24,545 nt of DNA from a virus (lineage: Duplodnaviria > Heunggongvirae > Uroviricota > Caudoviricetes). The stretch's first letter is position 1. Each line of letters begins with the position of its first letter. The position numbers and the translations under genes were made by a program. The stretch lies in IMG/VR virus record IMGVR_UViG_2579778797_000010; one strand, given 5' to 3'. Below are positions 12,640 through 21,226 of the stretch, in pieces. The notes under the pieces are model-generated. The model did no database searches and was not told the DNA's origin. It saw nothing but the letters and a program-made list of their open reading frames with translations.

Positions 12640-14280
12640 CACTTTTGTGGGGACAGTCCACAAAACTGCCAACTTCCGCTTCTTGCTCTTAGCGGACATT
12701 AGCATAGGCTATTTACCATAACGCCTCATTACGCGCACCGCCCAGACTGACTCAGCGCGTTTCTGGCATATCCCCGGTAAAACAAGTAACAAACCACCCG
12801 AAAATGAACACCAGAAACGCGACTTAAGAATCTACCCTATGAATGGATATGCACTCAACCGAATCGATCTTGGTTTCAATCTATTTTATCGGGATCAGGC
12901 TTCTTTTTAGGTAACTTCGGGGGCTTAACTTGCTGATGACTTTGCGTTCGGCGCGTAAGCCAGGGATGGTCAGCTTTAGATTTAACATAGTATTTTGAGC
13001 GTAAATCAATACGGGCATTATCCACTCGTTCATGGACACTCTTTTCATCATCCAGTGGTATAGGCTCCGGGCCATCAACATACTTTTCCCAGCCCAGCGC
13101 TTTCCCGTCATACAGAACGTTAATTTCACCGTCAAAGTTCTCACATACAGTAACAACTGAATGCCTAAGTCGATATCCCCGGCCCTCACTGCGTACCTGA
13201 AACGCACTGCTTTTGTACTGGAAAGTGAGATTTTTAGACAGAACGCGCTTCGCCTGTAGGCTGAAGATATAACCCAGTTCCTCTTCAGAATGGTGCACAT
13301 CAAGATGAGCATTATCAGTAGTACGAGGCGACGTAGCGAACCGGTTGTTATAGGCTTCAATAAAGGTCGGCAACCATGCATTTGCTGTTTCAATATCACT
13401 GATATTCTGAAGCCGCATTTCTTTGACCAGCCTGTCCTGTAGTGTCTGATTGGCGCGCTCTACCCGCCCTTTTGCCTGCGGGCTGTTGGCATGGATTGGC
13501 TCGATGCCCAGTGTCTTTATCGCACGAGTGAACTGGGTCAGCTCACCTTCCCGCTCTGGGTTATTTACCCTGAATATACTGTGTCTATCAGAGTAGAGAG
13601 CGAGCGGTACGCCATGATCATTAAGGTAACCCCGGAGGGTTTCCATGTAAGCCCGGGTTGTTTCAGCAGGCACAAAACGCAACGCCATCAACGCACTGGT
13701 GGCATCATCAATGAAAACGATCAGTGTACATCTGGGGCCTCGATTTTCAAACCAGTCATGAGGTGAGCCATCAATCTGGATCAGTTCACCGTAAGATGGT
13801 CGTCGCATGCGGCGTTGATATATACGGGCAATTTTACGACGGCGTTCACGCCATAACCCCTCTTCTATCATCCACTTTCTGAGAGTTTCAACGGATAAAG
13901 ATAAACCGTGTATCTCGCGCAATTTTTCGCACGCAAACGTAGGTCCAAAATCAGCGTAACGGCCTTTGAGGAGTGAAATTACTGTTGCTCTGAATTCAGT
14001 AGAAAAGGAATTATTAGGACGCTTTCCACGTCGGTGGGAAACCAGACCAGAAGGCCCTTCATTTCTATACCGTTGCACCAGACGTTTAACCTGCCGAATA
14101 GAAATGCCAATGCGTGCCGCAGCTTGTTCCTGAGTAATATGTCGATTAATTGACTCCTGAATAATCTGAAGTCGGTGGAGTTCCTTATGACTCATCGTAA
14201 CAGTCTCTTTGATCATGAAAAATCCCCCAGAGAATTGTCTGGGGACATTTTAGAATGGTTCAAAGGGGACATTACAGCTT
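12640..14280 (-). mobile_element. Insertion element carrying an rve/DDE transposase (IS481- or ISNCY-like); boundaries approximate
   Basis: Single large transposase gene with HTH N-terminus. GGGGACA motifs at 12648-12654 and at 14241-14247 and 14265-14271. Terminal inverted repeats could not be resolved by eye. Confidence 0.45.
12876..14216 (-). CDS. DDE transposase with integrase-core (rve) domain and N-terminal HTH
   Basis: 446 aa; HTH (ITQEQAAARIGISIRQVKRLVQRY), catalytic candidates in ELIQIDGSPHDW, ALYSDRHSIF and PQAKGRVERANQTLQDRL (D, D, E spacing typical of retroviral-integrase-type transposases). Confidence 0.85.
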   Translation of the reverse strand: MIKETVTMSHKELHRLQIIQESINRHITQEQAAARIGISIRQVKRLVQRYRNEGPSGLVSHRRGKRPNNSFSTEFRATVISLLKGRYADFGPTFACEKLREIHGLSLSVETLRKWMIEEGLWRERRRKIARIYQRRMRRPSYGELIQIDGSPHDWFENRGPRCTLIVFIDDATSALMALRFVPAETTRAYMETLRGYLNDHGVPLALYSDRHSIFRVNNPEREGELTQFTRAIKTLGIEPIHANSPQAKGRVERANQTLQDRLVKEMRLQNISDIETANAWLPTFIEAYNNRFATSPRTTDNAHLDVHHSEEELGYIFSLQAKRVLSKNLTFQYKSSAFQVRSEGRGYRLRHSVVTVCENFDGEINVLYDGKALGWEKYVDGPEPIPLDDEKSVHERVDNARIDLRSKYYVKSKADHPWLTRRTQSHQQVKPPKLPKKKPDPDKID

Positions 14281-14669
14281 GGTGTTAACAATAGCCTGCT
14301 TCTCCTTGCCTTCCGGCACTCGCGACAGATTATGTTTAGACGACTGTCGTAGCGACGTATTTCTCCGTCAGGTAATGACCAGATAAGGTCCGGATCAACC
14401 ACAGCAGGTTTCTTCACCTTTGCCCTCGAGAGTTTTTTGCGGGCGTTTTGCCAGTCCTTACGCGCCTGTTCAGACGGGAATAACCCGTAACCAGAGCTGT
14501 ATACATCGCCACTGGCAACCAGCTCTCTGGCCAGAACGCTCATCAGATATCTTGTTGCCCCAGTTTTAGCTTCCAGTTGTCGTAACGTCTCGCGCCCACT
14601 CTGGCGTACGAGTTCCACCACCTGCCCTTTAATTTTTTCCCGCTCTTCTTGTGTAAAAACTTTTGCCAC
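14250..14669 (-). CDS. Hypothetical protein (139 aa) co-transcribed downstream of the replication initiator; C-terminus may be altered by the IS insertion
   Basis: GTG start at 14667-14669 with strong AGGAGG SD, 40 nt after the rep stop. Last ~9 codons are encoded by the GGGGACA-containing sequence next to the transposase. Confidence 0.5.
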   Translation of the reverse strand: MAKVFTQEEREKIKGQVVELVRQSGRETLRQLEAKTGATRYLMSVLARELVASGDVYSSGYGLFPSEQARKDWQNARKKLSRAKVKKPAVVDPDLIWSLPDGEIRRYDSRLNIICRECRKARRSRLLLTPSCNVPFEPF

Positions 14670-14709
14670 AAGTCCTCCTGAACATTACTTTATACCCTAA
14701 AATCAACAC

Positions 14710-15675
14710 TTATCCCCTGAAACCAGGCGGAATTTCTGTATCCGGTTCAGAAATATGATTCACACAACGCTGTACAGGTGAACGTCCCAGGCGGATGACC
14801 AGTTCGTCCCATTTTTCGCGGAGTTTTGACGGGCTCATGATGTTTTTTACCCAGAATTGATCTCGCTGTACCCGACCAAACATTTCGCAAATTTGTCTGT
14901 GGCTTCTGCCATCCAGCATCCGCATTGTGCGCACGTCATTGGCCCAGGCTGTCCAGTTAGGCTCTTTTGGTCGCATGATCTCTCCATCGTCGCTGGCAGC
15001 CTGTTCGTAAAGGTTCACGATCCGCCCCCAAATCCACTGCGCACACGCCAAATCCTCCCTGCTACCCCACTGGCGTTTTTTCGCACTAAACACAACCGCG
15101 TCGGGGTTCCGGGTTAAAAAATCCTGTTCAGCGGTCTGCGGGTCCGGTTGCGAAGCTTCCGGACGAAAAGTGTTTTTATTCTCTGTAGTAATCTCTGTTG
15201 TATTCTCTGTAAGATTATCAGGCCATTTTGACCCGATGACATTGGGTCGTTTTGAACCAATGGAGCGTTTCATTTTGACCTCTTCCATCGTGTCATTTTG
15301 ACCTGATGGAGCGGCGCATTTTAAACCGATGGATTCGCTCAATTTGCCACCATCTAAAAGCTCGCTCCCGTAGTTGATCGTGTAGAAATTGGTCATATCG
15401 CGCTTTGATTTATTGAGCTTTTCACAACGCAAAAGCCCCAGCGTTTTCAGACTTGCAAACGCGCGCTTTAACGTTGACTCTGACCAGAATGGGAACTGTT
15501 CCAGCCATTGTTCCGTTGTGTTGTAAATCCAGCGAACACCATCACATTCCATGCCGGAATTGGTATCTCTCAACCAGTAATGCAACTGCTGCAACACAAT
15601 GGCTTCATTTAAGCCAATCTTCATCGCAAGCTGTGTGTTTATAACCAGTGGGCGTTCAGCAAAAAGAAGGCTCAT
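14710..15675 (-). CDS. Phage replication initiator (lambda O-like, origin-binding; ori iterons embedded)
   Basis: 321 aa from the ATG at 15673-15675 (alternative TTG at 15729). N-terminal winged-helix-like region; the coding sequence contains six ~23-bp iterons, as ori-lambda does inside O. Confidence 0.6.
   Translation of the reverse strand: MSLLFAERPLVINTQLAMKIGLNEAIVLQQLHYWLRDTNSGMECDGVRWIYNTTEQWLEQFPFWSESTLKRAFASLKTLGLLRCEKLNKSKRDMTNFYTINYGSELLDGGKLSESIGLKCAAPSGQNDTMEEVKMKRSIGSKRPNVIGSKWPDNLTENTTEITTENKNTFRPEASQPDPQTAEQDFLTRNPDAVVFSAKKRQWGSREDLACAQWIWGRIVNLYEQAASDDGEIMRPKEPNWTAWANDVRTMRMLDGRSHRQICEMFGRVQRDQFWVKNIMSPSKLREKWDELVIRLGRSPVQRCVNHISEPDTEIPPGFRG
15224..15354. repeat. Origin-type iteron array: six direct repeats at ~23-bp spacing (core CATTTTGACC) inside the rep gene
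   Basis: Copies start at 15224, 15248, 15271, 15294, 15317 and 15340. Preceded by three 12-bp direct repeats CTCTGTNNNANT at 15181-15216. Confidence 0.75.
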
Positions 15676-16177
15676 AATTCCATCCAGCTTTTTGTTGGTA
15701 TTGCTGTCGATACGCAAGTTTGAAAGCAATTGCTTTTTCTATAAGTTCGTCAGTTTCACGATCCACTACGGCAGGATCAGCAAAAAGCAGTCCGGACTCC
15801 ACCACATCGCCATATTCTTTGTTTAACCCGGCGATCATGTACGTGATGCTTTTTCCGTCACTAATTTCACGATACAACCTGAAATCATTAATCCGAATAG
15901 CCTCCATAATTGCAGGCACTAGCGCCGTGAACTTTTCACGCTTATCCCTGGTGTCGATAGCCTTCCAGCGTTCGAATATCTTCACTCGATTAACGCCAAG
16001 TGCTCGCTGATCAACCGCGCCACCTTCATCTGTGACACGCTGAACATCGATGTTCGGGCGCTCTTTCAAAGCCCAGAATGCTTCAGTGATTAATATCGTC
16101 GCCTGCTCCTGTGTCATTCCTGGTCGACATATCCAGGCATCCAGAGCCTCACGAGCCTGTTCAGGAGTGATTTTCAT
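15656..16177 (-). CDS. YdaT-like protein (CII analogue of Rac-type immunity regions)
   Basis: 173 aa, ATG at 16175-16177, directly downstream of the Cro-like dicC; contains a motif (KREKFTALVPAIMEAI) resembling what I recall of Rac YdaT. Confidence 0.5.
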   Translation of the reverse strand: MKITPEQAREALDAWICRPGMTQEQATILITEAFWALKERPNIDVQRVTDEGGAVDQRALGVNRVKIFERWKAIDTRDKREKFTALVPAIMEAIRINDFRLYREISDGKSITYMIAGLNKEYGDVVESGLLFADPAVVDRETDELIEKAIAFKLAYRQQYQQKAGWNYEPSFC

Positions 16178-16388
16178 TGTTCAACCGCCCCGCCCGCTTC
16201 GTCTTACGATATTCGTCATAAACCTTGGGATCATACAGAAGCTCGCCGCCAGATGCCTCCTGTAGACGCATCGCGCGACCTTCAGGAACCAGCTCTTGCC
16301 ATTGAGAAACAGCAGATGGGTCAACGCCAGCAGCTTTCGCTACTTTGGCTTTCGTACCGTAAAAATTAATTACGTCTGATTTAAACAT
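16161..16388 (-). CDS. dicC: Cro-like repressor DicC
   Basis: 75 aa from the ATG at 16386-16388: MFKSDVINFYGTKAKVAKAAGVDPSAVSQWQELVPEGRAMRLQEASGGELLYDPKVYDEYRKTKRAGRLNNENHS; divergent from dicA. Confidence 0.85.
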   Translation of the reverse strand: MFKSDVINFYGTKAKVAKAAGVDPSAVSQWQELVPEGRAMRLQEASGGELLYDPKVYDEYRKTKRAGRLNNENHS

Positions 16389-16397
16389 CGCACCCCC

Positions 16398-16419
16398 AAT
16401 ATTGAGTTTTCTCAATACT
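16398..16419. promoter_or_regulatory. Operator-like palindrome in the dicA-dicC divergent promoter region
   Basis: AATATTGAG-TTTT-CTCAATACT inverted repeat centred in the 78-bp intergenic region. Confidence 0.45.
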
Positions 16420-16465
16420 AATCACTCAAGGAATCTCAAGTCAAGGGTTATTAAGATATCTAAAT

Positions 16466-16873
16466 ATGAACGAGAAAACTTTAGGTCAACGCATTAGAGA
16501 AAGACGTAAGCAGGTAGGCTTAAGTCAAAACGGTTTAAGCAAAGCTGCTGGCGTATCTGGCTCATCAATTTCATTATGGGAAAGTGACCATACAGCCCCG
16601 CGCGGGCAAAATTTGCATCGCCTCGCCGAGGTATTGCAATGTTCACCAACTTGGATACTGTTTGGCGACGAGGACAAAACACCAGCTCCCCCTGTTTCAC
16701 TCGATAGTGCCTTAGACTTATCGGAAGATGAGTTAGAGATGCTGCGTTTGTATCGCGCACTTCCTAAATCAGAGCAACAAGCACAACTCAGCGAACTCCG
16801 CGCCCGCGTTGAGAATTTTAATCGCCTGTTCACCGAGCTATTAGAGGCTCGCAAACGCAACAAGCATCAATAA
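16466..16873 (+). CDS. dicA: CI-like XRE-family repressor (DicA homologue)
   Basis: 135 aa; N-terminal XRE HTH (LGQRIRERRKQVGLSQNGLSKAAGVSGSSISLWE); C-terminal half shares the QCSPTWILFGDEDK motif with DicA. Confidence 0.75.
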   Translation: MNEKTLGQRIRERRKQVGLSQNGLSKAAGVSGSSISLWESDHTAPRGQNLHRLAEVLQCSPTWILFGDEDKTPAPPVSLDSALDLSEDELEMLRLYRALPKSEQQAQLSELRARVENFNRLFTELLEARKRNKHQ

Positions 16874-19636: not shown

Positions 19637-21226
19637 ATGCGCAAACAGCCTGATGCCCTTCGCTACGACCGCCAAACTATTTTTGGCCTTGTCCGTGAGC
19701 GTCCGATCGACATTCACAAAGATCCCGTAGCACTGAACAAATATATCTGCGAATACCTGACGACAAAGGGCGTGTTTGAGAATGAAGAAACAGACCTGGG
19801 CACTGTTGATGTTCTCCAGTCATCAGAAACACAAACTGATGCAGTGGAAACTGAGGTATCTGATATCCCAAAAAATGAAACCGCGCCGGAAGCTGAACCA
19901 TCTGTAGAGCGTGAGGGGCCGTTCTATTTCCTCTTCGCAGATAAGGACGGAGAAAAATACGGTCGCGCAAACAAACTTTCTGGTCTGGATAAGGCACTGG
20001 CTGCTGGCGCCACTGAAATCACAAAAGAAGAATATTTTGCCCGAAAAAATGGCACATACACGGGCTTACCGCAAAATGTAGATACCGCTGAAGATTCAGA
20101 ACAACCAGAGCCGATAAAAGTTACCGCTGACGAAGTAAACAAAATTATGCAGGCAGCCAATATCAGCCAGCCTGACGCCGATAAGTTGCTTGCTGCCTCT
20201 CGCGGAGAATTTGTTGCAGGGATTAGTGACCCGAATGATCCGAAATGGGTTAAGGGGATCCAGACCCGCGATTCTGTGAACCAGAACCAGCATGAATCGG
20301 AACGGAACTACCAAAAAGCGGAACAAAACAGTCCAAATGCGTTACAAAACGAGCCAGAAACGAAACAGCCTGAACCAGTGGCGCAACAGGAAGTGGAAAA
20401 AGCCTGCACCGCCTGCGGTCAGACCGGCGGCGGCAACTGCCCTGATTGTGGCGCGGTGATGGGCGACGCAACATACCAAGAAACATTCGATGAAGAGTAT
20501 CAGGTTGAAGTTCAGGAAGATGATCCGGAGGAAATGGAAGGCGCTGAACATCCACACAAGGAGAACACTGGCGGCAATCAGCATCACAATAGCGATAATG
20601 AAACTGGCGAGACGGCAGATCACCCAATTAAGGTGAACGGTCATCACGAAATCACATCCACCAGCAGGACGTGTGACCATCTAATGATCGACCTTGAAAC
20701 CATGGGAAAAAATCCTGATGCCCCGATCATCTCAATAGGTGCAATATTTTTCGATCCGCAAACCGGAGATATGGGACCGGAATTTAGTAAGACTATCGAT
20801 CTGGAAACTGCTGGCGGAGTCATTGATCGGGACACCATTAAATGGTGGCTTAAGCAATCACGCGAAGCGCAATCTGCCATTATGACCGATGAAATCCCGT
20901 TAGATGATGCACTGTTACAATTGCGGGAATTTATCGACGAAAACTCCGGTGAATTTTTTGTTCAGGTTTGGGGAAATGGAGCCAACTTCGACAACACGAT
21001 TTTGCGCCGTTCATACGAACGGCAGGGGATCCCCTGCCCGTGGCGTTACTACAACGATCGCGATGTACGCACAATCGTTGAGCTGGGGAAAGCCATAGAC
21101 TTCGATGCCAGAACGGCTATTCCATTCGAAGGTGAGCGCCATAATGCACTTGATGACGCCCGTTACCAGGCAAAATACGTTTCAGTTATCTGGCAAAAAC
21201 TGATCCCGAGTCAGGCTGATTCTTAA
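19637..21226 (+). CDS. Protein with acidic low-complexity N-region, C4 zinc ribbon and C-terminal DEDDh-type 3'-5' exonuclease domain
   Basis: Motifs in DnaQ-like order and spacing: MIDLETMG (exo I), WGNGANFD (exo II), HNALDDARY (exo III, H-x4-D); zinc ribbon CTACGQTGGGNCPDCG. Confidence 0.65.
   Translation: MRKQPDALRYDRQTIFGLVRERPIDIHKDPVALNKYICEYLTTKGVFENEETDLGTVDVLQSSETQTDAVETEVSDIPKNETAPEAEPSVEREGPFYFLFADKDGEKYGRANKLSGLDKALAAGATEITKEEYFARKNGTYTGLPQNVDTAEDSEQPEPIKVTADEVNKIMQAANISQPDADKLLAASRGEFVAGISDPNDPKWVKGIQTRDSVNQNQHESERNYQKAEQNSPNALQNEPETKQPEPVAQQEVEKACTACGQTGGGNCPDCGAVMGDATYQETFDEEYQVEVQEDDPEEMEGAEHPHKENTGGNQHHNSDNETGETADHPIKVNGHHEITSTSRTCDHLMIDLETMGKNPDAPIISIGAIFFDPQTGDMGPEFSKTIDLETAGGVIDRDTIKWWLKQSREAQSAIMTDEIPLDDALLQLREFIDENSGEFFVQVWGNGANFDNTILRRSYERQGIPCPWRYYNDRDVRTIVELGKAIDFDARTAIPFEGERHNALDDARYQAKYVSVIWQKLIPSQADS

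Follow-up and report, generated by a model that had tools for sequence, protein, structure and literature searches.

The window in this study is the whole 24,545-nucleotide stretch of IMG/VR record IMGVR_UViG_2579778797_000010, from a virus of the Caudoviricetes (Duplodnaviria; Heunggongvirae; Uroviricota). In the middle of a replication initiator gene on its minus strand (14710-15675) lie six repeats of about 23 bp, hereafter iterons, and three tandem 12-mers. We conclude that these repeats are very probably the replication origin of a Qin-family lambdoid prophage, embedded in the linker-coding part of the initiator gene. The arrangement is an expected, lambda-style one and belongs to a known kind, the iteron origin embedded in an initiator gene. 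The evidence comprises the anatomy of the repeats, constraint acting on the DNA, conservation across the initiator family and homology of the initiator C-terminal domain to that of lambda O, all of which were observed directly. A preliminary description of the window had already likened the repeats to ori-lambda inside gene O, and the position, the order of elements, the ~23-bp spacing and the C-domain homology all agree with this likeness.

Repeat anatomy and constraint on the DNA

The iteron array spans 15217-15355 within the minus-strand initiator gene and was defined by stacking of the units, periodicity, suppression of synonymous changes and the presence of homologous arrays. More specifically, the units lie at 15217-15239, 15241-15263, 15264-15286, 15287-15309, 15310-15332 and 15333-15355, and their plus-strand starts (15217, 15241, 15264, 15287, 15310 and 15333) are spaced 24/23/23/23/23 bp. 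Three units contain the exact CATTTTGACC and two more have it with 2 mismatches; the sixth (CAATTTGCCA, 15333-15355) is degenerate, with 3 mismatches, and keeps the CA-N3-TG core. Of the six direct repeats previously described, all six units are therefore present, five of them strong and one weak, but each is a palindrome of about 21 bp and not merely a direct repeat. Stacking the units in gene sense gives a consensus core, CGGGTCA-AAA-TGACCCG, that is a perfect 17-bp palindrome (7/7 arm positions matching), and single units stretch the palindrome to ~21 bp, for example ATCGGGTCAAAATGGCCTGAT.

The exact CATTTTGACC occurs three times in the window, always in the array, where about 0.05 copies were expected on both strands. 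A periodicity scan of every 140-nt segment at periods 8-60 gave z = 7.8 for period 23 at 15227, whereas none of 100 dinucleotide-preserving shuffles of the whole window went above 5.63. When up to 2 mismatches were allowed, the 10-mer core showed no enrichment across the window (37 found, 32 expected); the iteron signal is one of clustering and phasing rather than of count. Tandem Repeats Finder (TRF) detected only the 12-mers; with copies less than 70% alike, the 23-bp array escaped it. The iterons occupy codons 107-153 of the 321-codon gene, which bears out their earlier placement inside the rep coding sequence. Since the period of 23 bp is not a multiple of three, neighbouring iterons are read in different frames, and a search of codons 107-153 for a peptide repeat found none.

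The three tandem 12-mers (15177-15212) form an A+T-rich block adjoining the iterons, a candidate DNA-unwinding or helicase-entry element. In gene sense they read TACAGAGAATA(C)/CAACAGAGATTA/CTACAGAGAATA (TRF score 50); they are in frame and encode the peptide TENTTEITTENK. The preliminary description had three 12-bp repeats preceding the iterons, the first starting at 15181. All three are present and the first starts at 15177, but the gene is on the minus strand, so that in the direction of transcription the order is iterons, then 12-mers. With an A+T content of 64-70%, the block (15177-15217) has the lowest duplex stability of any 40-bp segment in the replication module (14250-16420): -45.3 kcal/mol, against a window mean of -54.8 (sd 4.6).

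Searches of the origin region for the DnaA consensus, the IHF consensus, a GATC cluster and Rfam families found none of them, and no other periodic array or A+T-rich candidate origin was seen in the replication module. Promoter-like matches in the origin region were no commoner than in shuffles (2 found, 2.9 expected); a weak one, at 15242-15214 on the minus strand, overlaps iteron 1. Elsewhere in the window, a 21-bp periodicity at about 20249 (20249-20400, in a plus-strand open reading frame (ORF) of 529 aa at 19637-21226) matches the iteron signal in strength (z = 7.9). It was dropped: it is in frame, lies in an acidic, Q/E/P-rich low-complexity stretch without discrete repeat families and looks like ordinary coding periodicity.

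Selection on the repeats was assessed in 61 unique full-length genes with 90-100% nucleotide identity to the window copy, by counting synonymous differences per comparable codon pair together with amino-acid differences. Synonymous differences amounted to 0.153 in the codons of the N-terminal domain (N-domain), 0.022 in the iteron codons, 0.003 in the 12-mer codons and 0.198 in the codons of the C-terminal domain (C-domain); the corresponding amino-acid values were 0.015, 0.074, 0.026 and 0.040. Relative to the N-domain, synonymous changes are thus 7-fold rarer in the iterons and about 50-fold rarer in the 12-mers, while the iteron codons show about 5 times as many amino-acid differences (0.074 vs 0.015). 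Such an inversion marks a region in which the DNA, not the protein, is constrained, and the repeats are accordingly elements of the DNA and not of the protein.

The initiator family and its DnaT-like tail

The initiator family comprises 4,267 matches at E <= 1e-5. Homologs of the N-domain, taken from one genome per species, gave 79 homologous loci of ~5.5 kb each, from Enterobacterales, Pantoea, Xenorhabdus, Morganella, Photobacterium, Pseudomonas, Comamonas, Acinetobacter, Moraxella and several Firmicutes, which were scanned for periods of 15-40. In most of the 79 loci the strongest periodicity is 22-24 bp and falls ~250-410 nt past the gene start, and array spacing and position are kept in related rep genes down to 29-36% protein identity. 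The CA-N3-TG core was found in 42 lineages, flanked by palindromic arms specific to the lineage (GGTCA..TGACC, GGACAA..TTGTCC, GGGCAA..TTGCAC, GGATCA..TGATCC or ACCCA..TGGGT, and GGACAATTTGTCC for the Pantoea type). Units are uniform within a locus and different between lineages. We count this as stronger evidence than the correlation of arm divergence with N-domain divergence (Mantel r = 0.40, p <= 0.0005).

The 12-mers are conserved as well. A CAGAGA motif is 34-fold enriched at the 12-mer position, and at least two tandem copies of it follow the last iteron in 47/72 lineages. In several Firmicutes the first CAGAGA unit is out of frame, at 11-nt spacing, and encodes for example TRDYPETTTE. 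Because the units hold their 11-12-bp spacing even when out of frame, we regard CAGAGA as a DNA motif conserved in its own right. Tandem 12-mers of the form (T/A)ACAGAGA(A/T)TAC follow the iterons at homologous positions from Enterobacterales to Firmicutes (loci L088-L163), regardless of iteron specificity or type of C-terminal domain. Since the N-domain is the only partner shared by these loci, the 12-mers may be conserved either as a second DNA target or for unwinding.

Several further observations concern how the gene varies among relatives. The initiator gene is a mosaic: its 3' end and the DUF977 gene beyond it are shared with many phages at 91-93% identity, and the N-domain and iterons travel separately (81% identity to mEp460_4F5, 79% to Klebsiella phages), consistent with exchange of the DNA-binding domain and its sites as one unit. 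In a Shigella flexneri relative (L092, CP182557.1) the initiator frame is broken, remaining open for 30 codons from the start of the match, and the iterons and 12-mers are almost unchanged. Metagenome-assembled genomes labelled Bacillota, Veillonella parvula and Collinsella (L085, L087 and L139) carry initiator genes with 96-100% identity to that of the E. coli prophage; the contigs concerned are most likely mis-binned Escherichia prophage contigs.

The initiator itself is a protein of 321 aa, read from an ATG at 15675 and assigned to PHROG 391, 'replication initiation O-like' (E 6e-93). A mechanically called ORF runs on to a TTG at 15729 (14710-15729); phage records annotate the ATG at 15675. 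RefSeq labels the product 'hypothetical protein', and searches of Pfam (E <= 0.01) and NCBIfam returned no family. Sequence searches of the PDB with the initiator or with a 42-member profile returned only the DnaT tail described below and noise. Among the 42 diverse family members, no Pfam match (E <= 0.001) covers the N-domain, and the C-terminal parts are Phg_2220_C (14), DnaB_2 of the DnaD-like kind (4), DUF6017 (2) or of the lambda-O-like type. Some database entries are proteins of 448 aa or 321 aa that join a YdaT domain (PF06254) to the initiator; the two genes overlap by 20 nt, and gene calling has probably fused them there.

At the C-terminal end, a helical domain (aa 183-296; 14788-15129, minus strand) was recognised from BLASTP and a structural model as a homolog of the lambda O C-domain: residues 147-294 align with lambda O 135-270 at 34% identity (E 2e-28). 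Only this C-terminal half aligns with lambda O by BLASTP; the N-terminal part does not. The earlier term 'O-like initiator' accordingly holds through the C-terminal half, the N-terminal DNA-binding domain not being of the lambda O type. That N-domain (aa 9-108; 15352-15651, minus strand) is predicted to be winged-helix-like and is presumed to bind the iterons, on the strength of an AlphaFold (AF2) model, of Foldseek matches and of its conservation across phyla. The model was built from a 12-sequence alignment and has a mean predicted local distance difference test score (pLDDT) of 55. Its N-domain runs helix-helix-strand-strand-helix-helix-strand-strand (pLDDT 67-82), and residues 108-178 form a disordered linker (pLDDT 25-28), which is why we place the repeats in a linker-coding segment. 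Foldseek against the PDB ranked highest the N-terminal domains of staphylococcal plasmid RepA (4PQL and 4PT7) and a Rep-DNA complex (5KBJ). With E-values from 4e-3 to 0.1, a template modelling score of ~0.5 and 16-19% identity, obtained with a model of pLDDT 67-82, these matches are marginal, and a RepA-like fold of the N-domain is suggestive only.

The protein ends in a tail, VNHISEPDTEIPPGFRG (aa 305-321; 14713-14763, minus strand), that is almost the same as the final 17 residues of E. coli DnaT (primosomal protein I), VNTVSEPDSQIPPGFRG. The resemblance is confined to the tail and extends neither to the DnaT N-terminal domain nor to its folded C-terminal part (DnaT 84-153). With the NCBIfam DnaT equivalog the score is 16.2 bits, where the cut-off is 201, and only positions 160-179 align. 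It is this tail that explains the label 'Primosomal protein I' on the mEp460_ev081 gene.

The tail and the gene immediately downstream were tallied in 35 classifiable lineages. An IPxGFRG-like tail is present in 19, and in all 19 the adjacent downstream gene is neither a loader nor a helicase gene but a small winged helix-turn-helix/PerC-like gene, a DUF977 or DUF1627 gene or an unassigned ORF. Conversely, every one of the 16 initiators followed by a lambda-P-type (3), IstB/DnaC-type (11) or DnaB-type (2) gene is without the tail; relatives with a Phage_lambda_P gene are L088, L095 and L111. In the window the downstream gene belongs to DUF977, and none of the libraries searched identifies it as a helicase loader. 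No P-, DnaC- or DnaB-like gene was recognised in the complete phage HannyBb. A 228-aa protein of HannyBb, about the size of lambda P, was considered as a hidden loader and rejected as a QueH homolog.

How DnaT recruits DnaB/DnaC 'remains unknown' according to a 2026 paper on the preprimosome (PMC13377028), and in the literature searched we found no defined role for DnaT residues 154-179, which does not imply that none has been published. We put forward as a tentative and rather doubtful proposal that the tailed proteins form a loader-less class of lambda-O-like initiators. The tail, copied from host DnaT, would replace a P- or DnaC-type loader by way of host DnaT-dependent helicase loading, and the conserved N-domain would recognise the CAGAGA 12-mers as a specific pad for unwinding or for single-strand loading.

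Genomic context and rival explanations

The replication module is organised around divergent transcription. A DicA/CI-like repressor gene lies on the plus strand (16466-16873); diverging from it on the minus strand come a Cro/DicC-like regulator gene (16161-16388), a YdaT-family gene, the initiator gene and the DUF977 gene. The Cro-like gene, with a promoter-like site upstream (16444-16415, minus strand), is the first of a rightward early operon that reads through the origin. The YdaT-family gene ('CII-like', phrog_163; 15656-16177) is directly upstream of the initiator gene and overlaps its start, and the DUF977 gene ('LygF', 'Ren-like'; 14250-14669) stands where lambda has gene P. Directly downstream of the module, also on the minus strand, is a full-length IS1202-like transposase gene of the ISEsa1 family (12876-14216; a 446-aa ORF with helix-turn-helix and rve domains); the family label comes from the annotation of a 99.9%-identical strain.

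The locus is the Qin site, beside ynfB and speG. The module had been described as absent from the Qin prophage of E. coli K-12, and direct alignment confirms this: a clean 2,837-bp deletion (13061-15897 of the window; junction at K-12 1647357/1647358) takes the initiator gene, the origin, the DUF977 gene and the 3' part of the YdaT-like gene. One end of the deletion falls inside the transposase gene, at 13060/13061. What is left of the YdaT-like gene in K-12 is its 5' end, ydfX, and what is left of the transposase gene is its 3' end, ydfW. Of 5,426 complete E. coli genomes, 1,394 contain at least 80% of the module, and the module is 98.2% identical to that of phage mEp460_ev081 and 97.4% identical to that of phage HannyBb. 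Phages of the mEp460 type complete both lytic and lysogenic cycles (PMC9836094). The statement that the prophage in the window retains an origin thus appears correct, in the sense of an intact sequence.

By analogy with lambda O at ori-lambda and with iteron plasmids, we propose that winged-helix N-domain dimers of the initiator would bind the palindromic iterons, and that the phased array, with an A-tract at the centre of each unit, would bend or wrap into an O-some-like complex. Stress from this complex would open the adjacent 12-mer block, the weakest duplex of the module. Transcription from the early promoter on the Cro side would pass through the origin, as in lambda. More speculatively, since no P-, DnaC- or DnaB-type gene accompanies the initiator, its lambda-O-like C-domain and DnaT-like tail might bring in the host helicase-loading machinery directly.

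A number of points weigh against this interpretation of the repeats as an origin. The structural model is moderate (mean pLDDT 55, from 12 aligned sequences) and the best fold match marginal (E 4e-3). The 12-mer block is just 64-70% A+T, and is the weakest duplex of the module, not of the whole window; moreover, the peptide it encodes, TE-x-TTE, is itself conserved, and a protein-level role for this region is possible. Shared descent could contribute in part to the covariation of arms and N-domain. The ISEsa1-family element lies just downstream, and the prophage as a whole may be defective. Finally, the literature searched held no experimental report of binding, unwinding or origin activity for this initiator family. 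No description of an origin of this type turned up in searches on mEp460, lambdoid iterons and RepA_N, which is not to say that none has been published.

Other explanations of the repeats have to be weighed against the same data. That they are a by-product of a duplicated coding segment, that is a protein repeat with no function as DNA, is scarcely credible. The 12-mers do lie in frame and encode a repeated peptide (TENT/TEIT/TENK) that is conserved across the family. However, the 23-bp units are mutually out of frame and encode no peptide repeat, synonymous sites are between 7 and 50 times better conserved than those of the flanking domains while the iteron amino acids are freer to change, and the CAGAGA units keep their 11-12-bp spacing in other frames. 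Period and position are also kept across phyla, with the sequence changing in concert at each locus. The preliminary description had itself raised a coding duplication without conserved spacing in related rep genes; the repeats are out of frame, synonymous changes are suppressed and the spacing is conserved in those genes. For the 23-bp units this reading is largely refuted. It is also improbable, if somewhat less so, that the iterons are initiator sites serving mainly for control (autoregulation, titration or exclusion of related phages), with the true origin elsewhere. Plasmid iterons have dual roles in origin function and control. Cloned ori-lambda iterons inhibit lambdoid phages, according to two reports (PMC3349717, PMC4488673), and a weak promoter-like match covers iteron 1 (15242-15214, minus strand). 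Against this, promoter-like matches are at the level of shuffles (2 found vs 2.9 expected), the iterons are followed by the weakest duplex of the module in the position and order of ori-lambda, and the module holds no other periodic array or A+T-rich candidate origin.

More serious, although we still consider it unlikely, is the view that the origin is an inactive relic which looks intact: the prophage would be cryptic and the origin would never fire in this genome. The locus is the site of K-12 Qin, elements of the Qin family are often defective, a transposase gene of the ISEsa1 family (12876-14216) directly follows the module, and the Shigella flexneri relative L092 has kept its iterons beside a frameshifted initiator gene. 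Yet the initiator ORF in the window is full length, its protein is matched at 100% identity by copies on viral contigs, the module DNA shares 97-98% identity with that of viable phages, and the repressor gene, the Cro-like gene and the promoter-like site are all present. In addition, so strong a suppression of synonymous changes implies that the DNA elements are still being selected across the population.

Interpreting the repeats as an origin has several consequences. A RefSeq 'hypothetical protein' that lacks a Pfam family gains a function once its gene is seen to be an initiator gene containing an origin. The module becomes a simple marker of whether a Qin-like prophage can still replicate, which K-12 Qin cannot. 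The family offers a natural comparative series: a single origin-binding domain, the iteron grammar (CA-N3-TG, 23-bp phasing) and the 12-mer block are conserved, iteron specificity can be swapped, and the C-terminal modules, which go with different loaders, are interchangeable. The parts most worth attention are the conserved 12-mer element and the DnaT-like tail, the latter as a possible handle on the recruitment of DnaB/DnaC by DnaT.

Comparison with known systems

The closest known parallel is ori-lambda. In lambda, four 18-bp dyad-symmetric iterons (ATCCCTCAAAACGAGGGA) lie within O codons ~116-144 and are followed by an A+T-rich tract. The comparison suggested in the preliminary description was made, and the lambda iterons start 20, 24 and 23 bp apart, against 24/23/23/23/23 bp here. 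Both origins lie in the middle of the initiator gene, in its linker-coding region. Both consist of at least four iterons within the coding sequence (here six, five of them strong, with binding presumed) that are dyad-symmetric, have a central CAAAA(C/T)G-like A-tract and recur at ~23 bp, about two helical turns. In both, an A+T-rich region of low stability lies directly downstream in the direction of early rightward transcription, and the C-terminal domains of the two initiators are homologous (34% identity). Six iterons of which the distal ones are weaker are found in the origins of the Shiga toxin phages 933W and P27 (PMC7466680), a pattern echoed here.

The two systems also differ. The initiator of the window has no detectable similarity to lambda O in N-domain sequence and does not match the O-type family PF04492 (Phage_rep_O). 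Its iterons have a 7+3+7 geometry around CA-N3-TG, unlike the 6+5+6 of lambda, with arms of different sequence, and its A+T-rich block is made of conserved tandem 12-mers. No P-type loader gene follows immediately downstream, and the initiator carries a DnaT-like tail that lambda O lacks.

For the N-domain, the closest structural matches are the staphylococcal RepA initiators (4PQL, 4PT7 and 5KBJ), which are winged-helix dimers that bind iterons, one of them solved on iteron DNA. We take these proteins to be members of the RepA_N family. In plasmids of the RepA_N type, the middle of the rep gene likewise contains an iterated origin. The similarity is nevertheless marginal, the window protein has no Pfam RepA_N match, and the C-terminal domains and hosts are different.

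Finally, initiators of Firmicutes phages annotated as 'DnaD-like helicase loader' (Staphylococcus phages 96, 42E and phiIPLA88) share the N-domain at 49-52% identity (tblastn). The DnaD-like and replisome organiser initiators of Firmicutes differ in having Phg_2220_C or DnaB_2 C-domains, followed by genes for IstB/DnaC-like AAA+ loaders, in place of the lambda-O-like C-domain and DnaT-like tail found here. The Firmicutes loci L127, L140, L150 and L159 nonetheless each contain an array of 22-23-bp iterons of the same kind, and in L140, L150 and L159 the CAGAGA units come right after it.

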